DNA of 60,092 nt from Candidatus Bathyarchaeota archaeon (GCA_937898665.1 CALEIY010000017.1:1-60092); one strand, 5' to 3'; shown: positions 7,492-51,218, counted from the first letter of the stretch. The notes: generated by a model from the sequence alone, not told the origin. Translations and numbers: made by a program.

Positions 7492-8982
7492 ATGGGTAAG
7501 GCTAAGGGCTTCAGGCTTGAGGGAGTCATACCGGCGCTTGTCACCCCCTTCGACGAGCATGAGGAGTTCAACGAGGAGGCTTACCGCCGCCTCATAGACT
7601 GGCTCATAGAGAGGGGAGTCACAGGGGTCGTCCCCTGCGGGACAACTGGGGAGTTCTCGATGATGACCCGTGATGAGCGTCGAAGGGTTCTGGAGGTCTG
7701 CGTTGATCAGGTTAACGGCCGTGTTCCGGTTATAGCTGGAACAGGCTGGACGGCTACGAAGCTGGTCATAGAGGAGACCCAATATGCGAAGGATGTTGGA
7801 GCCGATGCAGCTCTCATCGTCAACCCCTACTATCTGAAGCCTAAGGGTGGGAAGGGCATCTATGATCACTATCTAGCCATCGCCGAGGCCGTTGATTTCC
7901 CCATAGTCCTCTACAACATCCCCTCCTGCACTGGTCAGTATATCCCATGGCAGGTCGTCGAGGATCTGGCCGAGATCGACAACATCGTAGGCCTGAAGGA
8001 TTCCAGCGGCGACCTGAAGTATCTCATGTCGGTGCTTGAGAAGGTGGGCGACAAGATCGATGTCGTCGTCGGCTGGGATGAGGTTGTGCTCCCAGCCCTC
8101 TCAGCCGGTGCAAAGGGAATGATCCTCGCCAGCGCCAACGTCATCCCCCACATCTGGCTTGAGATCTACGAGAAGGTGAAGGAGGGAGACCTGGAGGGGG
8201 CGAGGGCTATCCATAGGCGCATCCAGAAGTTCCTGCGGCACATCGTCTCCTCCGGCGCCCTAGGGGTGAAGGCCTGCCTAAACTACATGGGCCTCAACGT
8301 CGGCAGGACCCGTAGGCCATTGATAATGGGGGACACCCTCACCTATGAGCTGAGGGAGGAGCTCCGAATAGAGCTGGAGAAGTTGGGCCTCATAGAGAAG
8401 AAGCCCATCGCCTTCGAGATAGTCCCCGAGAAGCCCCTGATAGAGCGCTTCTACGCCATCGGGGTGACCCCTGAGGAGATCAAGCAGTTCCACCTAAGAA
8501 CCGGTGAGGCCCTCGTCGGTGAAGGAGCTGAGGTGGCCCACATAGACCTTCTAATAGGCAGGGTGGACGGCCCCGTCGGCAGAGCCTATGCAGAAGTTCT
8601 GTCGAGGCTTGTAGAGAAGCAGGAGGCGGTTCAGGTGATCCTCGAACCGGGAATGGCCGTGAAGCCGCCCACAATCATAGTTCCGACCGTTCCGGTTAGA
8701 AGCCTCAGACAGGCGAGTATGGTCTACGGCCCCGCGCAGGCTGGCGTCGCAAAGGCCGTGGCGAAGAGCGTTGAGGATGGGATTCTCCCAGCGACGGATG
8801 AATTGGTCATCATCGCTAAGGTCTTCGTCCATCCAACCGCAACGGATAGGCATAGGGTCTTCATCAACAACTTCAAGGCGATGCGCCACGCCATCAGGAA
8901 GGCGATGGAGGGTAGGCCGACGCCGGAGGAGACGACGGAGCACGCGGAGAACGCCAGACACCCCTTCAGAGAGAGCCTATAA
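7492..8982 (+). CDS. Fusion protein: DapA/N-acetylneuraminate-lyase-type class I aldolase (N-terminal) plus formaldehyde-activating enzyme Fae domain (C-terminal)
   Basis: N-terminal part has GTTGEF, VLYNIPSCTG and the Schiff-base lysine context IVGLKDSSGD. C-terminal part has GEALVGEGAEVAHIDLLIG, MVYGPAQAGVAKAV and a HPF ending, as in Fae. Confidence 0.8.
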   Translation: MGKAKGFRLEGVIPALVTPFDEHEEFNEEAYRRLIDWLIERGVTGVVPCGTTGEFSMMTRDERRRVLEVCVDQVNGRVPVIAGTGWTATKLVIEETQYAKDVGADAALIVNPYYLKPKGGKGIYDHYLAIAEAVDFPIVLYNIPSCTGQYIPWQVVEDLAEIDNIVGLKDSSGDLKYLMSVLEKVGDKIDVVVGWDEVVLPALSAGAKGMILASANVIPHIWLEIYEKVKEGDLEGARAIHRRIQKFLRHIVSSGALGVKACLNYMGLNVGRTRRPLIMGDTLTYELREELRIELEKLGLIEKKPIAFEIVPEKPLIERFYAIGVTPEEIKQFHLRTGEALVGEGAEVAHIDLLIGRVDGPVGRAYAEVLSRLVEKQEAVQVILEPGMAVKPPTIIVPTVPVRSLRQASMVYGPAQAGVAKAVAKSVEDGILPATDELVIIAKVFVHPTATDRHRVFINNFKAMRHAIRKAMEGRPTPEETTEHAENARHPFRESL

Positions 8983-27716: not shown

Positions 27717-28904
27717 CTATACGGCTCCAATCTCTCTAAGCCTCTCAACCTCCTCTGGCTCCAATCCGAGGATCTCCCTTAAAACCTCCTCCGTATCCCC
27801 ACCTAGCCTTGGAGCAGGGCCTCGAGGCCTAGGCCTCGTCTCCGACATCTTGATCGGCGACCCTAACAACTTGACTCTGCCTAATCCTGGCTGGTTTAGG
27901 GGGATGACCATCTCCCTCGCCTCGGCTATATGCTCATCTTCCACGACATCTCTCACCGTGTAGATTGGAGCCGCTGGAACCCCATGGCCGTTTAGGAGCT
28001 CCACGATCTCTTTGACACGCCTCTTAGAAGTCCAGGCCTCTATCCCCTTCTTCAACTCCTCATGGTGTTCAACTCTACTCGGATTCGTCTTGAATCTCTC
28101 ATCCTCAGCGAGATTTCTCAGTCCAGTGGCCTCTATGAAGCGCCTCCAGATTCGATCGTTGGCGACGCCTATGATGACCCATCCATCCCGCGCCCTGAAG
28201 GAGTCGTAGGGGTAGACGAACTCGTAGCGGTTGCCTATGCGCCCTGGGATGACGCCCTCCACAAAGTATCTCTGTGGAATGTTCTCCAGGGATGCGAAGA
28301 CGGAGTCCACCATGGCGACGTCGATGAGCTGCCCCCTGCCAGTCTGCTCCCTCACCCATAGAGCCGCCAGGATGCCTATACAGCAGAAGAGGGCTGCGAG
28401 GATATCCCCTATCGCTGTCCCAACCCTCGTCGGCGGCGAGTCCGGCCAACCCGTGACGCTGAGGAGTCCTCCCATCGCCTGAGCTATTATGTCGTAGGCA
28501 GCCCTATGCCTATACGGCCCAGTTCTACCAAAGCCTGAGATAGCCGCATAGATGAGCCTTGGATTCACCTTCTTAAGGTCTTCATAGCCTAGGCCTAGGC
28601 GCTCCATGGTTCCAGGCCTGAAGTTCTCCAACAGCACATCACTCCGCCTCACAAGCTCTAGGAAGATTCGTCTACCCTCGGGATGCTTCAAGTTGAGGGT
28701 GATACTCCTCTTACCCCTGTTGAGGTTAATGTAGTAGAGGCTCTCCCCATGTAGGAAGGGTGGGAAGGCCCTGGAGTCATCTCCCCGACCAGGCATCTCA
28801 ACCTTAATCACCTCCGCCCCAAGATCCGCGAGGATCATCGAACAGTAGGGGCCGGCTAGAACCCTACTTAGATCCAGAACCCTCACATCGCTTAAGTCCA
28901 TCAT
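27717..28904 (-). CDS. CoA-transferase family III (CaiB/BaiF/formyl-CoA transferase-like)
   Basis: RVLDLSRVLAGPYCSMILADLGAEVIKVE N-terminus. 395 aa. Confidence 0.85.
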   Translation of the reverse strand: MMDLSDVRVLDLSRVLAGPYCSMILADLGAEVIKVEMPGRGDDSRAFPPFLHGESLYYINLNRGKRSITLNLKHPEGRRIFLELVRRSDVLLENFRPGTMERLGLGYEDLKKVNPRLIYAAISGFGRTGPYRHRAAYDIIAQAMGGLLSVTGWPDSPPTRVGTAIGDILAALFCCIGILAALWVREQTGRGQLIDVAMVDSVFASLENIPQRYFVEGVIPGRIGNRYEFVYPYDSFRARDGWVIIGVANDRIWRRFIEATGLRNLAEDERFKTNPSRVEHHEELKKGIEAWTSKRRVKEIVELLNGHGVPAAPIYTVRDVVEDEHIAEAREMVIPLNQPGLGRVKLLGSPIKMSETRPRPRGPAPRLGGDTEEVLREILGLEPEEVERLREIGAV

Positions 28905-34540: not shown

Positions 34541-35716
34541 TCACCTCCTCCAGAACTTCAGTGAGAATCTCCTCCTCTTCCCCGCGAGCCTCATCTTCGG
34601 CGCCGTCCTCCAGTCAACCTTCACCCTCTCCCTGACCAGCTTCGTGTAGTTGACCCCGGGTATGTATAGCAGCTTCTCAGGTATCAGGCCGTCAGGTCTG
34701 AAGATCATGACGACGATCAGCAGCACTCCGAGGAGTATCTGCTCGAAGTAGCTTATTGGGAAGAAGAGTATCTTGTCGAAGAACCACTTATAGACGATGA
34801 TGACCCTCCGCATCGCGATGACGAGGGCGCATCCCAGGAAGGTTCCAGCGTTGTTCCCTGGGCCTCCCAGTATGAGCATCAGCCATGACCAGTAGGTCCA
34901 ATAGGCACGCTGATACATGGCGTCGACGACGTAGGAGTAGTAGTAGGCCGTCATCACGCCTGGTATAGCGGTGATGGCTGAGGCGAACATGAGGATGTTC
35001 CGCCTTATGCCTACGACGTTCTTACCCACGCTCAGGCAGGTGACCTCGTTCTCCCTTATAGCTCTCATCAGCCTTCCATAGGGGGAGTTAAGCATCGTTC
35101 TGAAGATGAAGAAGCAGATGAGTCCTATGGCGAGGGTGACTACGGCTGTGATGACGCCCCTGTCACCTGGATACCAGGCGAAGACGTTGGGTATCCAGAT
35201 GCCGAGGGTTCCACCGCAGATGTAGGGTATGTTCCTGCCGAAGATCTGCGATGCATCGGCCATGGTGATGAGGGTGATCATCAGATAGGTGGCCCTCAGC
35301 CTGATGGCTGGAACCGAGATCACCCATCCTATGACTGCTCCAAGAACCATGGCGACGGCTATGGAGAAGAGGAGCAGCGAAACTCCAAGGAGGGGGTGAG
35401 TCTTGAGGTAGTTGTTCACCGTGACGACATTCAACTGGCTGTTATAGAGCCAGTCGTAGGCTGTCTGGTAGGGGAGGAGCTTCACACCTGCCTTCTCAAC
35501 CAGCCAGTAGGCCAATCGCAGCGTTATGCCGCTGACGGTGAATCCTCCAACGATGACCTGGACGGCGCATCCGAAGTTGGGGATGCCAGCATTTCCATAC
35601 TGGAAGTTGAGGGCCATGGCGACGATGACGAAGAGGCCGAAGTACATCGCTATGTCGACGATGAGCCTGCTCATCCCAGTGATGGCGGCGACACTAGAAC
35701 CGATAACGGCCAACAT
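34541..35716 (-). CDS. livM: Branched-chain amino acid-type ABC transporter permease (LivM-like)
   Basis: 391-aa polytopic protein adjacent to the LivH-like gene, with a typical LivM layout. Confidence 0.8.
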   Translation of the reverse strand: MLAVIGSSVAAITGMSRLIVDIAMYFGLFVIVAMALNFQYGNAGIPNFGCAVQVIVGGFTVSGITLRLAYWLVEKAGVKLLPYQTAYDWLYNSQLNVVTVNNYLKTHPLLGVSLLLFSIAVAMVLGAVIGWVISVPAIRLRATYLMITLITMADASQIFGRNIPYICGGTLGIWIPNVFAWYPGDRGVITAVVTLAIGLICFFIFRTMLNSPYGRLMRAIRENEVTCLSVGKNVVGIRRNILMFASAITAIPGVMTAYYYSYVVDAMYQRAYWTYWSWLMLILGGPGNNAGTFLGCALVIAMRRVIIVYKWFFDKILFFPISYFEQILLGVLLIVVMIFRPDGLIPEKLLYIPGVNYTKLVRERVKVDWRTAPKMRLAGKRRRFSLKFWRR

Positions 35717-35722
35717 CCTCCA

Positions 35723-36679
35723 TCACTCCACCTTAATCCCCAATTTTGATAATAACTCTATCCCTCTCTTGCTCTTCGTCAGCCATTCATAGGCCCCCTG
35801 TAGGCCTCTAGGCTGGATCAGTAGCACGGCGATGAGGAAGAACATCGGTATCAATGGCCTATACTCGCCGACCCAGATGCCAAAGGTTGCCTGAAGCCTA
35901 TTTGTCAGCAGGATCTCCGAGAGGCCGACTCCGAATCCCCCTATAATGGCTCCATAGACGTTCTCCATCCCCCCTAGGAGGCTGCCGGCCATGATGCTGG
36001 TGATGATGTAGGATCCAGCCGCTGGGTGGGACTGGAACCACATTGGATACATAGCGCCGGCGAGGGCTGCGAGGCCTCCAGTGAGGAACCAGGAGTAGAG
36101 CTGGGTTCTATATACGTCGATGCCGAGAACCGATGCCAGCTCAGGGTCTTCAGCCACAGCCCTCATGGAGACGCCGAGCCTCGTCTTCGTCAGGAAGGTG
36201 TGGAGGAGGACGACGGTGACAATACAGATCGTAAGGGCTACGAAGAAGATCCCAGGTGTGCCCCCGAGTTGGAAGTCTTTCTCCTTCAATATGAAGAATA
36301 TAGTATAGGTCTTAAAGGTATCCCTAAGCCAGTAGGCGTAGATGTAGAGGAGAGCTGTGAGGAAGATGTCGATGGCGATGGTGGAGATCGTCAACACTAT
36401 GGCTCCACTACCCATCTTCGTGAGAACCCCAATTACAAGCATGTAGACGACGACCCCTATGCTACCGCCGACGAGGAAGGCTACGGGGAAGGAGATGTAG
36501 GGGTTTAGGCCTAAGATCTTAGAGATCGTGTAGTTGACGTAGATGCCGTAGCCAGCGTAGGTGCCGTGGGCGAAGTTGGGTATCTTAGCCGTCAAGTAGG
36601 TCATTGTGAAGCCGATGCTGAGGATGGTGATTTCGCAGGCATATACTATCGCGGCCATCACGAGTGGTGGTAATAGCAT
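35723..36679 (-). CDS. livH: Branched-chain amino acid-type ABC transporter permease (LivH-like)
   Basis: 318-aa polytopic protein with a GYGIYVNY.. region and Gly-rich helices. Confidence 0.8.
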   Translation of the reverse strand: MLLPPLVMAAIVYACEITILSIGFTMTYLTAKIPNFAHGTYAGYGIYVNYTISKILGLNPYISFPVAFLVGGSIGVVVYMLVIGVLTKMGSGAIVLTISTIAIDIFLTALLYIYAYWLRDTFKTYTIFFILKEKDFQLGGTPGIFFVALTICIVTVVLLHTFLTKTRLGVSMRAVAEDPELASVLGIDVYRTQLYSWFLTGGLAALAGAMYPMWFQSHPAAGSYIITSIMAGSLLGGMENVYGAIIGGFGVGLSEILLTNRLQATFGIWVGEYRPLIPMFFLIAVLLIQPRGLQGAYEWLTKSKRGIELLSKLGIKVE

Positions 36680-36882
36680 AATCCCATCACTCCCATAATG
36701 GAGCCTTCCATCACTTAAATAAATTTTTTTAAACGCAGCAATTCATTTAGAGTTTGATTCCTATTCTGTGATATTCAATTCTGGTTATTTTTAGCGAAAA
36801 TATAAACACACCCCTCCATATTGACTCTAAAAACTTATATAAGGATCAGTAACGATACTAAAAATTGCGAAAATAAAAAGAG

Positions 36883-38217
36883 GTGAAAACTTTGGAGCGA
36901 AGTGCTATTGCTCTTGCTGTGGTTTTATTGATTGTTGGCCTAGGGATTGGTGTCGGCGTCGGTAGATACACGGCTCCGGTAAAGGTGAAGGAGGTAACTA
37001 AGACCGTCACCGTCGAGACCAGACCTCTGGAGGGCAAGACCATCCAATTCGGCGATATAGTTGCCCAGACATCTGACCTGGAGACCTACAAGCCGATCCT
37101 CGATAACGTCATCCTTCCCGACATAAATGAGTATGCGAAGCTCCTAGGCTATGACGTGAAGTTTGAGGGCCTCCTAGACGACGCTCAGGCTCAGGCCGCT
37201 ATCCACTTGGAGAAGGTTCAGAGCTTCAAGGCTATGGGCGTCAACCTACTCATCTGTGGTCGATGGTCGTCCCAGGCTCAGGCCGCCCTATCATACGTCA
37301 ATGAGAACGACATGATCATGTTCAGCCCCTCCTCCACCTCTCCGCTGCTGTGGATCGAGGGTGACAGGCTCTTCAGGATGTGTCCAAATGACTATATCCA
37401 GGCTCCAGCCATCGCTAAGATGCTTTGGACCTGGGGGATCAAAGGCGTCATAGTGATTCAGAGGGGAGACCCGTGGGCAGATGGTATATATAATATCTTC
37501 GAGAAGGAGTTCCCGAAGCTGGGTGGCGAGATCCTCGCTAGAGTGAGGTACGCCGCTGAGGTGACGGAGTTCAGCAGCTACCTAGAGCAGATGGAGGAGG
37601 TCGCAAAGGAGGCCGTTGAGAAATACGGTGCAGAACATGTCGGCATCTTACCTATCAGCTTCACCGAAATCGTCACCATACTAACTCAGGCTAAGGATTA
37701 CCCAACCATATACAATCTAATGTGGTTCGGCACCGATGGTACAGCCTTCGTTGCACAGCTTGTAGACGATGCACCAGAGCACGCTGATCATTGCAAGGTG
37801 CTGAGCACTCTAGCAGCTCCAGCAGAATCGCCAAAATGGGATTACTTAATGGAGAAATCCTATGAGGTGAGGAACATGCCTGCAGATTACTACACGGCGT
37901 GTGCCTATGACATCTATCTCGCTTATGTCCACATAATCTTAGAGGAGCAGACCGATGAGCCGAGTGAGATCGCCGACCATATCATACCATACTGCTATGA
38001 CCTCTTCGGAACCAGCGGCTGGTGTCAGCTCGATAAGTGTGGAGATAGGGCTGCTGCCAACTATGACATATGGGGCTATACCATCGTCGATGGGAAGTGC
38101 ACTTACGTCAAGTATGGTGTCTATAGTAGCGTAACCGGCGAAGTAAAATGGTTTGAGAAGGGAGTAACAACGGAAGGAGTAGAGGTTCCAGGGCTAACTC
38201 CACCTGGTCAGGGTTAA
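36883..38217 (+). CDS. Type I periplasmic-binding-fold substrate-binding protein (LivJ/K-like), membrane anchored
   Basis: N-terminal TM anchor AIALAVVLLIVGLGIGVGVG, then an SBP domain of about 400 aa. Divergent from the permeases, upstream of the ATPases. Confidence 0.8.
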   Translation: MKTLERSAIALAVVLLIVGLGIGVGVGRYTAPVKVKEVTKTVTVETRPLEGKTIQFGDIVAQTSDLETYKPILDNVILPDINEYAKLLGYDVKFEGLLDDAQAQAAIHLEKVQSFKAMGVNLLICGRWSSQAQAALSYVNENDMIMFSPSSTSPLLWIEGDRLFRMCPNDYIQAPAIAKMLWTWGIKGVIVIQRGDPWADGIYNIFEKEFPKLGGEILARVRYAAEVTEFSSYLEQMEEVAKEAVEKYGAEHVGILPISFTEIVTILTQAKDYPTIYNLMWFGTDGTAFVAQLVDDAPEHADHCKVLSTLAAPAESPKWDYLMEKSYEVRNMPADYYTACAYDIYLAYVHIILEEQTDEPSEIADHIIPYCYDLFGTSGWCQLDKCGDRAAANYDIWGYTIVDGKCTYVKYGVYSSVTGEVKWFEKGVTTEGVEVPGLTPPGQG

Positions 38218-38306
38218 ACCCATCTTTTTTGAGTTCTCTTTCTCTCCGGGAATGGGTGAAAAATATTTAAGGTTCTAATTGAGGTTAGTATGGTTGGTCG
38301 AAGGGG

Positions 38307-39068
38307 ATGACCGAAGTTCTCAGGGTTGAGAATGTGAGGAAATTCTTCGGTAAATTCGCAGCTGTCGACGGCGTAAGCTTCACCCTCCATGAGGGGGGGA
38401 TATACCTCCTCGTCGGCCCTAATGGATGTGGAAAGACGACGCTTGTCAACTGCATCTCAGGCTACTTCAAGCCTGAGGAGGGACGCATCTACTACCGAGG
38501 TGTCGACATCACCGATGAGCCGATGTACATCAGAGCCAGGAGGGGATTGGTGAGAACCTTCCAGATCGCATCCCCATTCATGGCCCTGACGACCCTGGAG
38601 AATATGCTCGTCGCCCTCCCCGACAACGCGGGTGAGAACATCTTCCTCTCCCTCTTCAGGCCGACCTGGATCGACAGCGAGATCAGCGCGGTGCGGAGGG
38701 CTGCGGAGCTCCTGAGGGTTCTCGGCCTCATGCATGTCTGGAATAAGCCAGCTAAGACCCTCAGCGGAGGCGAGCTCAAGCTCCTGGAGATTGGGAGGGC
38801 GCTGATGAGCGGCGGTGAGACCATCCTCCTCGACGAGCCCGTAGGCAGCATAGACCCGAAGCTCTGCCACCAGATCTTCAGCCACATCATAAAGCTGAGG
38901 GATGAGCTGAACATCACCTTCCTAGTCATCGAGCACCGCCTCGAGGTCGCCGCCCAGTATGCCGACTGGGTCTTCGCCATGGATAGGGGCAAACTCGTCT
39001 GCCAGGGCAGAGCTGAGGAGGTCTTCGAGGATCCAAGGGTCATCACCTCATACCTAGGGGAGGAGTGA
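38307..39068 (+). CDS. livG: ABC transporter ATP-binding protein (LivG-like)
   Basis: GPNGCGKTT, LSGGELKLLEIGRAL, LLDEP. Confidence 0.9.
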   Translation: MTEVLRVENVRKFFGKFAAVDGVSFTLHEGGIYLLVGPNGCGKTTLVNCISGYFKPEEGRIYYRGVDITDEPMYIRARRGLVRTFQIASPFMALTTLENMLVALPDNAGENIFLSLFRPTWIDSEISAVRRAAELLRVLGLMHVWNKPAKTLSGGELKLLEIGRALMSGGETILLDEPVGSIDPKLCHQIFSHIIKLRDELNITFLVIEHRLEVAAQYADWVFAMDRGKLVCQGRAEEVFEDPRVITSYLGEE

Positions 39069-39072
39069 GAAA

Positions 39073-39822
39073 ATGGGAAACATAATTGAGACTAAGGGTT
39101 TAAACGCGGGTTATGGGCCTATCCACGTCCTCTATGACCTAGACTTCGAGGCTCCAGATGAGGCTGTAACCGTTATCGTAGGCCCCAACGGCGTCGGCAA
39201 GACGACGCTCCTAAAGGCCATAATGGGATTGGTCACCATCTACTCTGGGAAGATATACTTCCAGGGGAAGGATATAACGAAGATGCCGCCCCATGAGAGA
39301 ACACGTATAGGTATAGGGTACATGCCTCAGGTGGGCAACATCTTCAGCAGGCTGACGGTGTGGGAGAATCTAAAGATGGCGGCCTACATCGTTAAGGATC
39401 AGAGTAAGATCGAGGAGAAGCTGGAGATGATCTTCACCCTATTCCCGAAGCTGAAGGGCTTCCTACATCGAAAGGCTGGAACCCTCAGTGGAGGTGAGAG
39501 GCAGATGCTCGCTGAGAGCATGGTGCTTATCAGAGACCCGAGGGTGATGCTCGTCGACGAGCCGACGGCGGGTCTGATGCCAAAGCTGGTGACGGAGGTT
39601 ATGAAGAAGTTCAAGGAGATGGCCGAGCTGACGGGTCTACCCGTAATCCTCGTGGAGCAGAGGGCCCGTAGGGCTCTGCAGGTAGGCGACTATGCATACA
39701 TGATGAGGCATGGCCGCTTCATCTTCAAGGGAACCGCCAAGGAGCTCCTGAATCATCCACACCTGACGGAGATGTACCTCGGCGCCATAGAGGTCAGGGA
39801 GCTGAGGTACGTCAGAGAGTAG
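39073..39822 (+). CDS. livF: ABC transporter ATP-binding protein (LivF-like)
   Basis: GPNGVGKTT, LSGGERQML, LVDEP. Confidence 0.9.
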   Translation: MGNIIETKGLNAGYGPIHVLYDLDFEAPDEAVTVIVGPNGVGKTTLLKAIMGLVTIYSGKIYFQGKDITKMPPHERTRIGIGYMPQVGNIFSRLTVWENLKMAAYIVKDQSKIEEKLEMIFTLFPKLKGFLHRKAGTLSGGERQMLAESMVLIRDPRVMLVDEPTAGLMPKLVTEVMKKFKEMAELTGLPVILVEQRARRALQVGDYAYMMRHGRFIFKGTAKELLNHPHLTEMYLGAIEVRELRYVRE

Positions 39823-46925: not shown

Positions 46926-47708
46926 TTGATGCTTGAGGAGGTTCTGGAGGCCTTCAGGGGGGAGGCTGAGCGGTGGGGTTTGAGGGGTGTCCTCGGCTTC
47001 GCCCCCTTCGGAGACGTCTATGCTGCGCTGATGCCGATTCAGAGGAGGCGGCTTGAGGAGCTCTGCGGCGACACCATAGACTCCATGCGGGGCGCCATCT
47101 CCATCGCCTATGCCTATCCGAGGGAGGTTATCGAGGCCATACCCATGAGGGGGTATAGGGAGTCTTGGAACATCTATGCCAGGGCCTATCATAGGTTGAA
47201 TAGGGCCTTGAACCATACGGCGGAGAGGATCGCCGAGCTCGTCGATGGGGTCGCCGTCCCCGCAACCCTCGAGGGGTTCACCGGCAGTGTGGGGCATGTG
47301 AAGGATTTCTACGCCGCGACGGTCTCCCACAGGGTTGCAGCTGAGCTGGCTGGGTTGGGCTGGAGGGGGAAGAGCGGATTGATTGTGAATCCCAGATACG
47401 CCTCGGCGATTAGATTGGCCACCATCTACACCCCCCTATCGTTTCCATCTACGGGGCCGTCTGAGGGGGGATGCGGCGAATGTCGAGCCTGCCTTGAGAC
47501 CTGCCCGCTGCTGCGGGCTGAGAGGCTCGGCGAGGATTATAGGGAGCTGTGTCGGCGATACATCATCGCCCTTGAGCGGCGTGGATTGGAGGCCGATGTC
47601 TGCGGACGCTGTGTGAGGGCCTGCGTCGAATCCTTCGAGTCGGGATATATGAGTCGACACCTAAACCCAGATTGGATTAGGAGGCCCTACTACATCGACA
47701 TAGATTGA
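46926..47708 (+). CDS. QueG/reductive-dehalogenase-like iron-sulfur protein
   Basis: AAELAGLGWRGKSGLIVNP block, CGECRACLETCP, and a second Cys group C...CGRCVRAC. TTG start. Confidence 0.55.
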   Translation: MMLEEVLEAFRGEAERWGLRGVLGFAPFGDVYAALMPIQRRRLEELCGDTIDSMRGAISIAYAYPREVIEAIPMRGYRESWNIYARAYHRLNRALNHTAERIAELVDGVAVPATLEGFTGSVGHVKDFYAATVSHRVAAELAGLGWRGKSGLIVNPRYASAIRLATIYTPLSFPSTGPSEGGCGECRACLETCPLLRAERLGEDYRELCRRYIIALERRGLEADVCGRCVRACVESFESGYMSRHLNPDWIRRPYYIDID

Positions 47709-47746: not shown

Positions 47747-48646
47747 CTATGGGATTTTGAAGAGGGGGTGTTCCCTGCTGAGTTTTAGGCCTCCCCTCAT
47801 CGCTGGGAAGGCGTAGGCGGCGTCCACCATCGCTACGGCTGGATAGACGTAGGGGGCCTCCTCTATTGGGCCGTAGAGGAGGAAGTCGGCTCCGAGGGCT
47901 GCTGCCACGGCGTTGACGGCCGCCACCGCCGGCCTTCTGGCTTTGACTCCCATCTTCCTTTTCAGGCCCCTCCATAGGCCTATGGCGTTGTGGGGGCCGC
48001 ATCCAGATGGTAGTCCCCATCTGGACTTGGCTTCAGGTATGGCTTGGAGGGCTGCTCCGAGGCTTGGGATGTCCATCACGAAGGTGTCGAGAAGGGGTTT
48101 CTCGATGCCATATCCCTCAACGGCCTTTAGGAGCTCCTGGAGCGCCTTCAACCTTCCAGCTGAGGTGAGGCTTGAGACATTATAGGCGAGGAGTATGGCG
48201 CATTTGACTCCCGCATCCCTTATGGTCTCAAGCTCCTCTCTTCCGCATCCTGGTAGCAGCGAGTTGTAGACGATTCGGTTTGTAAGCCCCACCTCCCCAG
48301 CCCACTTCAGGGCCTCGATCCTAACCTCCGGCGTGGGGCCGCCTAGGAGGAGGGGTTCATCGGTGACGTCTGCCGCGAATTCCAGGTATCTCCTCAAGGC
48401 CTCCGAGGTAGCCCCCTCGACGTCCAGCATGGAGGGGTTCCCCGTCCGATCTGAGTACTCCTCCTGCAGCTTTATGAGCTCCTCAGCCTTCTCCTCGTCG
48501 AAGACTCCGCGGCGTTCATCCTCGACGATCCGCTGCTTCTTGTAGAATATTGTACCTATCAGCACCGTTGGGTCTCGACCTGGTATTCCGCCGACTTTGA
48601 CTCCGGCGATCTCGAAGACCTTCTGCTCAGCCTCCAGCCTCATCAA
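47747..48646 (-). CDS. MtrH-family methyltransferase (methylcorrinoid:tetrahydro(methano)pterin type)
   Basis: VFEIAGVKVGGIPGRDPTVLIGTIFYKKQRIVEDERRGVFDEEKAEELI...TGNPSMLDV closely follows the MtrH pattern. Confidence 0.85.
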   Translation of the reverse strand: MMRLEAEQKVFEIAGVKVGGIPGRDPTVLIGTIFYKKQRIVEDERRGVFDEEKAEELIKLQEEYSDRTGNPSMLDVEGATSEALRRYLEFAADVTDEPLLLGGPTPEVRIEALKWAGEVGLTNRIVYNSLLPGCGREELETIRDAGVKCAILLAYNVSSLTSAGRLKALQELLKAVEGYGIEKPLLDTFVMDIPSLGAALQAIPEAKSRWGLPSGCGPHNAIGLWRGLKRKMGVKARRPAVAAVNAVAAALGADFLLYGPIEEAPYVYPAVAMVDAAYAFPAMRGGLKLSREHPLFKIP

Positions 48647-49769
48647 CCTGCTCCACCACCTCGACGCCGCGTCTCCGGAGCTCCATGAGTATCTCCTCGA
48701 AGATCTTTGGCCTCAGACCAAGCCTCTCAGGGGGTATAACTCCCCTCTCCTCTATTCGCCCCTTCGCCAGCAGTTGGGCCACTATGGAGGTTGTGTAGCC
48801 CGTCGTCCTAGCCATCGCCGTGACGCCCCTCGCCCTGTCATATCTGTCGAGGAGGTGGAATCTGATGGTCTTCTCGGCTCCATCCTTCAAGCCCTTAACC
48901 TCCACCATCATCGCCAGGAGGTCTCCCACATCGGGCATCCTCAGATGCCTCTCCAGCAGCCTGGCGGTGAAGCGCTTTGGTGAAACCTTCACCCCCTCAA
49001 CCTCTATGGGCTCATCGTCGAAGAGGCCGAGGTCTCTGAGCAGCTTAACCCTCTCCACATGCCCAGGATACCTAAGCGTCTTCTCATACATGCTCTCCAC
49101 CCCCTTGAAGGTGTCGATGAGGGTTCTCAGGCCATCTGTGTAGAAGGCCTCCAAACGGCCGAGCCCTGGAAACTCGATCTCCTCGAGGCCGCTGAGGGCT
49201 GGAACCTCGACAACTCTGCCGCCCTCGACGATGCGGACGGGTCGTATATACTCGTCGATGAGTCCCTCAGCCGACCATGTTATCGTATAGCCCAGCGGTG
49301 GAACAGGCCTCTCAGGTATGCCTCCGACGAGTATGTGGGCCGCCCTCACCTCGTCGAGCTTCGAGGCCCCATAGCCCACCAGCATATTCGACAATCCAGG
49401 GGCCACTCCGCAGTCGGGGATGAGTGTCATCCCCCTCCGCCGAGCCTCCTCGTCGAGGATCAGCGGATTCTCAGGGGTGTAGGAGACATCCACCATGTCG
49501 ACGCCCATCTCAACGGCGGCCTTCATGGCGTTGAAGCCGTAATCCCCTGGCAGCGCCCCCACAGCTAGGTCGAATCCCTCAAGGGCCTTGGCTATTCCCT
49601 CCTTACTTGAGGCGTCGACGGTCGTCCACTCTCCACCGATCTCCTCAGCCACCCTCTGGGCCGCAGCCTTGAATTTGTCGCCGACGGTTATCTCAGCCTC
49701 CAGCGACTCCGAGAGGTCTTTGGCGATGGTGGAGCCGATCTTTCCGCAGCCGATGACTATGATTCGCAT
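48627..49769 (-). CDS. Saccharopine dehydrogenase-family NAD(P)-dependent oxidoreductase
   Basis: IVIGCGKIGS Rossmann motif, IPDCGVAPGLSNML, and TAMARTTGYTTSIVAQLL C-terminal block. Confidence 0.8.
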   Translation of the reverse strand: MRIIVIGCGKIGSTIAKDLSESLEAEITVGDKFKAAAQRVAEEIGGEWTTVDASSKEGIAKALEGFDLAVGALPGDYGFNAMKAAVEMGVDMVDVSYTPENPLILDEEARRRGMTLIPDCGVAPGLSNMLVGYGASKLDEVRAAHILVGGIPERPVPPLGYTITWSAEGLIDEYIRPVRIVEGGRVVEVPALSGLEEIEFPGLGRLEAFYTDGLRTLIDTFKGVESMYEKTLRYPGHVERVKLLRDLGLFDDEPIEVEGVKVSPKRFTARLLERHLRMPDVGDLLAMMVEVKGLKDGAEKTIRFHLLDRYDRARGVTAMARTTGYTTSIVAQLLAKGRIEERGVIPPERLGLRPKIFEEILMELRRRGVEVVEQVDEAGG

Positions 49770-49772
49770 CTC

Positions 49773-51218
49773 TTACACCTCCGGCCTCTGTAGGTTGTAT
49801 CTTTTGAAGATGGAGTTTACGACTTCCTCTAAGGCCTGTGCCCTCTCCTCTGGCATAGGTTTGGGTTGATGTTCTCTCAGCAGCTTCTCTACTCGTTCCT
49901 TGGCTCTGGTGATGATGTCCTTTGATCCGGCTTTCTTCCAGGCGTCGAGGGTGAGTCTGCAGACTACATCTGATGGTATGTATCTTTCTCTTCTGAAGTG
50001 CTTCATCGTATGCCTCTCACCCAGATAGTGGCCTCCAGGGCCCACCTTCTCTATGACATCCAGAGCCAAGGTCTCCTCATCGACATCGATGCCCTCCACC
50101 AACCTATAGGCCATGGCACACAGCTCATCATCAATAACCAACTTCTCCAAGGACTGACAATTCTCTGAGGCCAACATCCCTGGGCCTGAGACGACGTTTA
50201 CGCCGGTGAGAGCAGCCATCAAGATGCCTATGGCGGACTCGAAGCAGCACTGACCATCAACAACCTTAGAGTCGCTGAGGCCGAGGTAGCCATGGGTGGG
50301 CAGTCCATAATACTTACCTACCTCCGCTTCGGCGCAAGCCGTCATCATCGACTCTATGGCTCCAAGCCTCGCGGTGGCGTATCTCATGTCGAAGAGCGTT
50401 GGGGAGCCGCCGTAGATGACTGGGGTTCCAGCCCTTTTAAGCTGGGCGATGACGATGCCGCTGAGGATCTCGGCGTTCGCCTGAACGAGGCTTCCGGCTA
50501 TGGTCACAGGCCCTGTCGCCCCTATCTGGGGCGCAGCTATGATCTCAGCCGGTATCCCCCTCTCGGCGAGGTCTATGACATTCTGGGCCGTGACATCTCC
50601 CCACATGAGTGGTGATGTTGGGCAGCAGTCGAAGATGGCTCTTGGTCTGCGTCTCAATTCCTCTGGGCCTCCTACGGCTGCGTTCAGCATCTCAGCCATG
50701 TCTATGAGGCCCTGCTTCGAGAAGGCTCCAGTGATGATGGGCTTATCAGAATTCCTCAAAACGATATACAGCCTATAGAGGTCTGCGACAACATCTGGAA
50801 CATCGGAGGGAACTATAGCAGTGCTCTGCGCCCCTATGTGTTCGAGGGCGTCAGTCACCCTCACCAACTTCTCCAGGTCTCTCGACGTCCCCCTCCTAAT
50901 CTCTCCGGTTTCGGAGTCTAGGAAGTATATGGCTGCCGATCCTGGGTTGTAGACGACGTTGTCGCCTCCGATGAGGAGGCTTCTATCGCCGTCTCTGCTG
51001 TATAGCTCTATCTTGGATGGAGCCTTCTTCAGGCATTCCCTCGCCAGCTCCTCAGGGATCCTCACCCTTCTACCCTCAACCTCACAGCCATTCTCCTCCA
51101 GCAGCCTCAAGGCATTCTCATTTCTAACCTCCACCCCCACCTTCTCTAAGATGTGTAGAGTGGAGCTGTGTATCTCCTCTATCTCATCTCTCTCTAGAAG
51201 CTTGAATTCCCTAACCAT
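49773..51218 (-). CDS. MttB-superfamily methyltransferase, non-pyrrolysine member
   Basis: EIEEIHSSTLHILEKVGVEV N-terminus. 481 uninterrupted codons with no in-frame TAG. Confidence 0.85.
   Translation of the reverse strand: MVREFKLLERDEIEEIHSSTLHILEKVGVEVRNENALRLLEENGCEVEGRRVRIPEELARECLKKAPSKIELYSRDGDRSLLIGGDNVVYNPGSAAIYFLDSETGEIRRGTSRDLEKLVRVTDALEHIGAQSTAIVPSDVPDVVADLYRLYIVLRNSDKPIITGAFSKQGLIDMAEMLNAAVGGPEELRRRPRAIFDCCPTSPLMWGDVTAQNVIDLAERGIPAEIIAAPQIGATGPVTIAGSLVQANAEILSGIVIAQLKRAGTPVIYGGSPTLFDMRYATARLGAIESMMTACAEAEVGKYYGLPTHGYLGLSDSKVVDGQCCFESAIGILMAALTGVNVVSGPGMLASENCQSLEKLVIDDELCAMAYRLVEGIDVDEETLALDVIEKVGPGGHYLGERHTMKHFRRERYIPSDVVCRLTLDAWKKAGSKDIITRAKERVEKLLREHQPKPMPEERAQALEEVVNSIFKRYNLQRPEV

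Follow-up and report, generated by a model that had tools for sequence, protein, structure and literature searches.

Clusters of mtrH, mttB and mttC genes (plus RACo) are known in non-methanogenic Culexarchaeia, Brockarchaeia, Asgard archaea and Bathyarchaeia, and have been read as a sign of methylotrophy, its substrates being either quaternary amines or methylated compounds of unknown identity and the methyl groups entering the tetrahydromethanopterin/tetrahydrofolate (H4MPT/H4F) branch of the Wood-Ljungdahl pathway (PMC9723716, PMC11291895, PMC7886697). We describe here a locus of this recognised mtrH-mttB-corrinoid protein-RACo methylotrophy kind, located at positions 47747 to 51218 of a 60,092-nucleotide stretch of DNA from a Candidatus Bathyarchaeota archaeon (CALEIY010000017.1; hereafter the window, with coordinates counted from its first letter). 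Like the known clusters, the locus has a non-pyrrolysine MttB homologue and a lone MtrH homologue unaccompanied by other Mtr subunits, and the MttC/MtbC-like corrinoid protein (CoP) and RACo-type activase of those clusters are found, as exactly this set, in the relatives L015 and L102 (L numbers are our locus handles). It differs from them in having no CoP or activase gene in the cluster, the CoP of a congener being encoded ~455 kb away, and in placing an oxidoreductase of the L-lysine 6-dehydrogenase (LysDH)/saccharopine dehydrogenase (SDH) family between the two methyltransferases, MT1 (MttB) and MT2 (MtrH). A literature search found no paper that pairs a saccharopine or lysine dehydrogenase with MttB or MtrH.

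The closest biochemically and structurally characterised system is MtgB/MtgC/MtgA of Desulfitobacterium hafniense (glycine betaine:tetrahydrofolate). DhMtgB, which has Leu at the pyrrolysine (Pyl) position, is the best PDB match of the window MttB (9yce/2qne, 293 bits), and DhMtgA is related to the window MtrH-like protein (6sj8, 221 bits). However, the four glycine-betaine ligands of DhMtgB (Y97, R312, H348 and F356) are S, H, S and E in the window MttB, the MtrH-like protein scores far below the MtgA cutoff of NF047990, and the acceptor in the window system is probably H4MPT rather than H4F. We know of no oxidoreductase in the MtgBCA cluster. The oxidoreductase of the window finds its closest characterised or solved homologue in the L-lysine 6-dehydrogenase PH1688 of Pyrococcus horikoshii (PDB 3abi; 248 bits, 41.9% identity end to end), for which, to our knowledge, no linkage to methyltransferase genes has been reported. 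With the Methanosarcina barkeri MttB/MttC trimethylamine methyltransferase system the locus shares the MttB fold family (235 bits to MbMttB, 7xcl, the second PDB match) and, in its relatives, a CoP nearest to MttC; it differs in an MttB that lacks pyrrolysine and stays below the TIGR02369 cutoff, in a predicted acceptor that is a pterin reached via MtrH and not coenzyme M via MtbA, and in having no MCR context.

On balance, and with a little more confidence than doubt, we read the locus as a standard corrinoid-dependent MT1 and MT2 pair of a non-methanogenic Bathyarchaeia archaeon, expressed from a leaderless operon that also encodes an NAD(P)-dependent amine dehydrogenase in an accessory role.

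A predicted operon of two methyltransferases and a dehydrogenase-like protein

An earlier note on this DNA, made from the sequence before any search, had proposed a tight operon of three minus-strand genes. Open reading frame (ORF) calling recovered all three at exactly the coordinates given there, and a promoter-like element was recognised upstream:

49773 to 51218, minus strand: non-Pyl MttB-superfamily methyltransferase (MT1), 481 aa, ATG start; S-H-L-S-E group (see below); PF06253
48627 to 49769, minus strand: saccharopine/L-lysine-6-dehydrogenase-family NAD(P)-dependent amine oxidoreductase, 380 aa, ATG start; PF03435 + PF16653
47747 to 48646, minus strand: MtrH-family methylcobamide:pterin methyltransferase (MT2), 299 aa, TTG start; PF02007
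51241 to 51254, minus strand: promoter-like element with B recognition element and TATA box (BRE/TATA), AAACTTAATTTATC; from sequence reading and conservation

The spacing described in the earlier note was likewise reproduced, with a gap of 3 nt between the MttB and SDH-like genes and an overlap of 20 nt between the SDH-like and MtrH-like genes, or 17 nt if translation of the latter begins at an ATG at 48643, one codon inside the TTG start. The TATA-like core of AAACTTAATTTATC is centred ~28 nt before the MttB ATG, a distance at which the transcript would have little or no leader. When the upstream regions of relatives were aligned, the motif AAACTTAATT(T/G)-AT was found to be kept upstream of MttB in the window and in five close relatives; it is present in L004 and L092 despite different upstream genes and is degenerate in L013. 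This element is the putative promoter. No Shine-Dalgarno (SD) motif was seen upstream of the MttB start, and the internal genes have one each (GGAGGTG before the SDH-like start, GGTGGTGGAG before the MtrH-like start), as is common in archaeal operons, where the first gene is leaderless and the inner ones are SD-led. With the short gap, the overlap, the promoter-like element and the internal SD motifs all pointing the same way, co-transcription of the three genes as a single operon is a well supported prediction. The operon is flanked in the window by genes for PCNA, S19e and other archaeal ribosomal proteins, TFB, RadA and deoxyhypusine synthase, which together with the closest database relatives identify the host as a member of the Bathyarchaeia, presumably an uncultured archaeon of sediment or hot spring.

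Profile hidden Markov model scores far beyond chance were obtained for all three proteins. MttB matches the Pfam family MTTB (PF06253, COG5598) over residues 3-467 of 481 with 362.8 bits against a cutoff of 25, which makes it a full-length member of the MttB superfamily, as had been supposed. It had also been called a non-Pyl member, and this is borne out by an uninterrupted 481-codon frame with no in-frame stop and by the alignment of Leu314 with Pyl334 of M. barkeri MttB (7xcl), a position at which MtgB likewise has Leu. An identity as Pyl-type MttB was rejected, given the absence of an in-frame UAG, Leu314 at the Pyl334 position and a score of 461.3 bits for TIGR02369, the Pyl-type trimethylamine methyltransferase equivalog, under its cutoff of 525.

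In the glycine betaine site of MtgB, described in a 2026 structure paper, Y97 and F356 hold the quaternary nitrogen by cation-pi interactions and R312 and H348 bind the betaine carboxylate; R312 is conserved in the other characterised superfamily members that were aligned, MtcB, MtpB, MthB and MtyB (PMC13080624). All four ligands are replaced in the window MttB, by S94, H309, S344 and E352, which with Leu314 give the pocket signature S94/H309/L314/S344/E352 (S-H-L-S-E). Glycine betaine, the MtgB substrate, was rejected as the substrate of the window MttB because all four ligand residues differ, Arg312 among them. The missing carboxylate-binding Arg, together with the new Glu, hints at a substrate unlike the acidic betaines studied so far.

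A database search returned 2,488 relatives of the window MttB at E<=1e-30, and the S-H-L-S-E signature is found in 97 of the 120 closest homologues, most of the others having Q or N for H. Every MttB encoded directly upstream of an SDH-like gene carries it (21/21), across SDH-like proteins spanning 53-97% identity to that of the window. The two MttBs encoded in reversed order, after the SDH-like gene, have Ala for the second Ser, and one of them also has Tyr for His. MttB paralogues co-resident in the same loci show S-G-M-T-E or G-D-D-S-G instead. The SDH-linked MttBs form one distinct orthologue group.

The middle protein had been placed in the saccharopine dehydrogenase family, with a GxGxxG Rossmann motif and no DxHxxG cobalamin-binding motif, and each part of that description stood. 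The domains Sacchrp_dh_NADP (PF03435, 60.3 bits) and Sacchrp_dh_C (PF16653, 175.2 bits) both score above their cutoffs and together span residues 3-369, the Rossmann motif is GCGKIGS at residues 7-13, and a search of the protein for a PF02310/PF02607 domain and for DxHxxG found none. Motifs are common to the protein and 3abi along the whole length, and beta-2 closes with an Asp (D31), a feature of NAD-type sites. Far more remote than 3abi are the saccharopine reductases and the carboxyspermidine dehydrogenases. Identity as a carboxy(nor)spermidine synthase was rejected (NF043000, 23.7 bits against a cutoff of 800). In this family 42% identity does not fix specificity, and an L-lysine 6-dehydrogenase activity of the window protein (EC 1.4.1.18, NAD-dependent oxidative removal of the epsilon-amino group of L-lysine) would be a supposition from similarity to 3abi.

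The MtrH-like protein matches PF02007 over residues 7-280 (308.5 bits) and the 'MtrH family protein' model NF002142 (325.1 bits, cutoff 287), in agreement with its first assignment, and the peptide blocks on which that assignment was based, KVGGIPGRDPTVLIGTIFY and TGNPSMLDV, are both present. It was rejected as a bona fide MtrH subunit, with 260.5 bits for the equivalog TIGR01114 against a cutoff of 271.4; its gene neighbours are the SDH-like and QueG-like genes, and no Mtr subunit was found among the annotated window ORFs (mainly those >=300 aa). It was also rejected as an MtgA, its NF047990 score of 257.7 bits falling far short of the cutoff of 550. Among PDB entries it most resembles the archaeal, MtrH-annotated chain 8z9u_B (311 bits), whose partner chain was not a CoP homologue by sequence comparison. 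The protein is 65% identical to the MtrH of the CoP-MttB-MtrH-RACo cluster of L102.

Linkage of the dehydrogenase gene to MttB

A metagenome scan seeded with an alignment of SDH-like homologues gave 80 further loci, which were de-replicated at 90% identity; linkage counts rest on our own ORF calls and tblastn thresholds. The MttB-SDH-MtrH triplet is syntenic in the close relatives L001-L005, L013, L017, L092 and L097, which is uninformative because the whole neighbourhood is conserved there. An MttB gene directly adjoins the SDH-like gene in 16 of the 57 evaluable de-replicated clusters. An MttB-family ORF occupies position -1 of the SDH-like gene in 15/55 loci, as against 0-3 at each other position from -6 to +6. 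The earlier note's proposal that the oxidoreductase is functionally tied to the methyltransferases is thus strengthened, since the pair of MttB followed by SDH-like gene recurs in many divergent Bathyarchaeia loci with different surroundings. In a simple neighbour-joining tree the linkage falls in at least four separate SDH clades, and it takes at least five gene orders. The architectures seen were:

MttB-SDH-MtrH
CoP-MttB-SDH-MtrH/RACo
MtrH(-)/CoP-MttB-SDH
MtmB-MtmB-MttB-SDH, closely preceded by a weaker match to CoP
MttB-MttB-SDH-aminotransferase-RACo/MttB(-)/CoP/MtrH(-)
SDH-MttB, in reversed order (L059, L063)
SDH-MtrH without adjacent MttB (L034; also L037, where the upstream gene is not evaluable)

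Linked clusters also recurrently bring in M20 peptidases resembling ArgE/DapE deacylases or dipeptidases (L015, L057, L062; also L101), an amidohydrolase, PRK07324-type class I/II aminotransferases, MFS transporters and SHMT. Uninterrupted, and so non-Pyl, MtmB homologues lie directly upstream of the MttB-SDH pair in L027 (2815-4266) and, as a tandem pair, in L028 (1424-4265); a function has lately been demonstrated for one non-Pyl MtmB, the demethylation of tetramethylammonium and choline (PMC13044021). Two members of a deep SDH clade, L068 (1-13134) and L083 (1-13134), are dense methyltransferase islands with an amidohydrolase, two to three MttB paralogues of differing pocket signature, an SDH-like gene, a divergent minus-strand MttB, CoP and MtrH. 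An aminotransferase and RACo are further present in L068. In L083 there is another SDH-like copy, and the first MttB is broken in two, as though by a frameshift.

Among close relatives the triplet stays intact while its upstream flank varies, with insertions between PCNA and MttB in L004, L092 and L013. The inserts measure 2.5-3.3 kb (L004 3245-6550, L092 1245-4550, L013 3004-5552) and carry HAD-like hydrolases or, in L013, an Asp-protease-like gene and small ORFs. On one contig (ERZ650341; L001 2-937, corresponding to window 49773-50708) the MttB fragment is only 90% identical to that of the window; the SDH-like protein is 100% identical, and MtrH, the QueG-like protein and HpcH are 97-99% identical. 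The drop in identity at the MttB/SDH boundary suggests recombination or strain mosaicism.

Several observations weigh against our reading of the locus as a corrinoid-dependent methyltransferase pair with an accessory dehydrogenase. No MttB or MtrH gene is adjacent in 41/57 (~72%) of the de-replicated SDH-like loci, and four look-ups seeded with MttB (~62% identity, L101-L104) found an adjacent SDH-like gene in 0/4, one having an SDH-like gene 6.4 kb off; partnership with the dehydrogenase is thus optional, and the role of that enzyme may be wider. Linked and unlinked SDH-like proteins are not told apart by any alignment column. The evidence for a CoP is indirect and comes from the congener, the 60 kb of host sequence that were searched containing neither CoP nor activase. 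H4MPT and H4F are both in play as the pterin, and the cluster of L015 adjoins a FolC-like gene. The dehydrogenase role and the substrate, finally, are inferences by guilt-by-association.

The linkage data bear most directly on the possibility that the SDH-like gene encodes a general enzyme of amino-acid or amine catabolism, such as a lysine 6-dehydrogenase, which merely landed in the operon and was inherited with it in some lineages. The many unlinked loci are what would be expected of such an enzyme, as is the presence of MFS transporters and a HAD hydrolase beside the unlinked genes. S-H-L-S-E MttBs also occur in full CoP-MttB-MtrH-RACo clusters without any SDH-like gene, and 75 near-invariant columns (>=97% conserved) are common to linked and unlinked SDH-like proteins. 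Chance residence, however, does not readily account for the sharp peak of MttB at position -1, for linkage spread over so many SDH clades and architectures, including SDH-MttB (L059, L063) and SDH-MtrH (L034), or for an SDH-like gene that in the window is translationally coupled on both sides. Repeated independent pairing with one MttB orthologue group is hard to ascribe to drift. We consider this explanation unlikely, while giving it real weight. Probably the SDH-like gene represents one enzyme function that is recurrently, though facultatively, encoded right after this MttB.

Upstream of unlinked SDH-like genes with MFS transporters, a 366-aa protein without Pfam hits is encoded in L040 (3929-5029) and five other loci. 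Its one match, to dimethylargininase, is weak (18 bits, E=0.0016), and near the C-terminus it carries a SIHC motif that recalls enzymes modifying guanidino groups.

Enzymes of the SDH family make an amine from an aldehyde and a second amine (or ammonia), or split it into these, according to PMC10413350 and established family knowledge. Their reactions are reversible and several of them are biosynthetic (PMC10413350), which raises the possibility of an anabolic system. Here the SDH-like enzyme would use reductive amination, in the manner of carboxyspermidine or homospermidine synthases, to assemble a secondary amine or something akin to a polyamine. MtrH, CoP and MttB would methylate this product from methyl-H4MPT, so that a solute or polyamine with N-methyl groups results. 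The order of the genes (MT1, dehydrogenase, MT2) says nothing on direction, and an anabolic role of CoP-MtrH couples in Bathyarchaeia has been raised (PMC7886697). Yet all characterised MttB-family enzymes demethylate the amine (PMC13080624, PMC8604678), the MFS transporters, M20 deacylase, amidohydrolase and aminotransferase of related clusters suit uptake and degradation, not biosynthesis, and the NF043000 score is far from that of a carboxynorspermidine synthase. An anabolic system is, in our estimate, improbable.

Less probable still, and very unlikely, is that the SDH-like enzyme is a new NAD(P)-linked methyl- or methylene-pterin oxidoreductase, an analogue of Mer/MetF that oxidises the methyl-H4MPT formed by MtrH, formally an iminium/amine redox reaction of the kind catalysed in the SDH family. 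Its gene does lie directly upstream of, and overlaps, the MtrH-like gene, the SDH-MtrH arrangement without adjacent MttB is seen in L034 (and in L037, as listed above), and the type of chemistry, with a C=N+ species gaining a hydride or arising by its loss, is the same. However, SDH-like genes are linked to MttB far more than to MtrH, which is directly downstream in 3/72 non-close loci, and unlinked copies keep company with transporters and hydrolases, not with C1-pathway genes. The 42% identity to a characterised lysine 6-dehydrogenase, with motifs common throughout, also argues against a pterin oxidoreductase.

A probably dispersed corrinoid carrier

The earlier note had reported that no corrinoid-protein gene accompanies the two methyltransferases. 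For the window this is right: tblastn with a relative's CoP and RACo found no homologue in the 60 kb, and a six-frame scan of the same sequence found no B12 motif of the form DxHxxG...SxL...GG. For the lineage it is not. We examined a congener (GCA_054042865.1) whose 574-kb contig JBPKUH010000004.1 includes a locus, L097, that is collinear with the window (PCNA-MttB-SDH-MtrH-QueG-like-HpcH-S19e) at 88% DNA identity over 13.5 kb, the two MttBs being 93% identical in amino acids. At ~488.9 kb on the same contig, ~455 kb from the MttB-SDH-MtrH triplet, lies a stand-alone MttC-like CoP gene (L099; 217 aa, PF02607+PF02310, motif DIHSIG). Its product is 69-78% identical to six CoPs encoded directly beside MttBs of the S-H-L-S-E group in other loci.

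More distant relatives keep the carrier beside the same methyltransferase. In L015 the order is a FolC-like gene, CoP (B12-binding_2 + B12-binding), MttB, SDH-like gene and MtrH, with a RACo-type activase on the opposite strand; the SDH-like protein there is 70% identical to that of the window and the flanks are entirely different. L102 has CoP-MttB-MtrH-RACo without SDH and with an MttB of the S-H-L-S-E group, and CoP-MttB pairs of the same MttB orthologue group are found in L101, L103 and L104. The CoPs of these relatives are most similar to M. barkeri MttC (7xcn_M, 221 bits), and RACo stands beside the related clusters L015, L037, L068, L101 and L102. The parts of the carrier system are probably dispersed in the window lineage.

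The earlier note had gone on to remark that an amine oxidoreductase is the only gene between the two methyltransferases and that this could be an undescribed route, which would point to one without the usual corrinoid protein. With a CoP in the congener and in relatives, and with SDH domains covering a middle protein that has no B12 features, that inference finds no support, and a corrinoid-free or SDH-as-carrier route was rejected. Hardly any credence is left for the wider version, in which either the oxidoreductase or the neighbouring QueG/reductive-dehalogenase (RDH)-like Fe-S protein (46926-47708) replaces the carrier: in its favour are the absence of CoP and RACo from the window and the position of the QueG-family gene, 38 nt from the MtrH stop and kept in close relatives, QueG being a cobalamin enzyme, but an orthologous MttC-like CoP is encoded on the congener's same contig, relatives keep CoP beside the same MttB-SDH pair, the NAD(P)-binding and SDH C-terminal domains account for the whole of the SDH-like protein, which has no DxHxxG, and the QueG-like gene is convergent, syntenic in the close lineage only and absent from all other linked clusters.

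The QueG-like protein itself (260 aa, plus strand) is an odd occurrence for an archaeon. It scores 62 bits for TIGR00276, below cutoff, and 41 bits against epoxyqueuosine reductase in the PDB. Its gene runs convergently on the strand opposite to MtrH, is syntenic in all close relatives and is absent from more distant MttB-SDH clusters; it was rejected as a part of the system and treated as unrelated.

In each of two independent assemblies (L099 7504-8654, L100 131-1269), a gene for a PNPOx-like protein (FMN-binding split-barrel) comes before the stand-alone CoP gene of the congener, on its strand. The surroundings of the CoP gene hold thiamine, polyamine (AdoMet decarboxylase, BpsA) and toxin-antitoxin genes, and no methyltransferase gene was seen nearby.

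Proposed pathway and its meaning for Bathyarchaeial MttB

In the corrinoid-dependent reading that we favour, MttB would move a methyl group from an N-methylated amine onto the Co(I) of a separate MttC-like CoP, which in the window lineage would be encoded far from the operon. MtrH would then pass the methyl from methyl-Co(III) to a pterin, likelier H4MPT, and a RACo-type activase encoded outside the window would repair oxidised cofactor. The SDH-like enzyme would not replace the corrinoid protein and would most likely act on the C-N skeleton of the same substrate. By analogy with LysDH and saccharopine reductase, which work at C6 of lysine, it would oxidise a C-N bond of the demethylated or partly demethylated amine to yield an aldehyde and ammonia or (methyl)amine, leaving the remainder of the molecule open to catabolism. 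Flux direction, acceptor, dehydrogenase role and substrate are what we infer in this scheme.

H4MPT is more likely than H4F as the pterin acceptor, and is favoured because the window encodes a Fae domain, Fae being an H4MPT enzyme. The MtrH-like protein also stands nearer to archaeal MtrH-annotated structures (8z9u_B, 311 bits) than to MtgA, which depends on folate (221 bits). The Fae domain is part of a 496-aa protein (7492-8982, plus strand) in which it is fused to a DHDPS-family (class I aldolase-like) domain, a fusion partner unfamiliar to us. The fusion implies H4MPT-linked formaldehyde handling in the host.

As to the substrate, a methylated basic amino acid (for example N6-methylated lysine) or a diamine is a guess. 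The context mildly favours the methylated lysine or polyamine type raised in the earlier note, given the LysDH-like closest homologue and the ArgE/DapE-type deacylases, aminotransferases and MFS transporters of related clusters. At a distance of 8-20 kb from the operon, the window also has genes for an ABC amino-acid uptake system of the LIV type (34541-39822; two BPD_transp_2 permeases and a periplasmic binding protein, with two further ORFs in the ATPase positions) and for a family III CoA-transferase (27717-28904), possibly a context of amino-acid or amine catabolism.

A bolder proposal, which we advance tentatively and consider unlikely, is that the S-H-L-S-E MttB and the LysDH-like dehydrogenase define an anaerobic pathway, not described before, for diamines or basic amino acids that carry N-methyl groups. 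Detrital protein might be the source of such substrates, for example N6-trimethyl-, dimethyl- or monomethyl-lysine. Methyl groups would travel via CoP and MtrH into H4MPT, and cleavage of the C6-N bond by the dehydrogenase would yield allysine and ammonia or (methyl)amine. Related clusters would extend the set with more MttB and non-Pyl MtmB paralogues, ArgE/DapE-type deacylases and aminotransferases.

Relative to the literature searched, what is new is the recurrent pair of MttB followed by a LysDH-like gene, the large S-H-L-S-E orthologue group and the dispersed carrier. Since a CoP can be encoded hundreds of kb away, a missing CoP gene beside MT1 and MT2 is no sign of new methyl-transfer chemistry, and the interest of the locus does not lie there. 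Bathyarchaeia are among the most abundant archaea of anoxic sediments, and they carry thousands of non-Pyl MttB homologues without known substrates. The S-H-L-S-E pocket and the LysDH-like gene downstream of it give a concrete handle on the substrates of these abundant enzymes. If true, a methylated-lysine pathway would provide the first substrate class for one of the most abundant MttB groups of the Bathyarchaeia.

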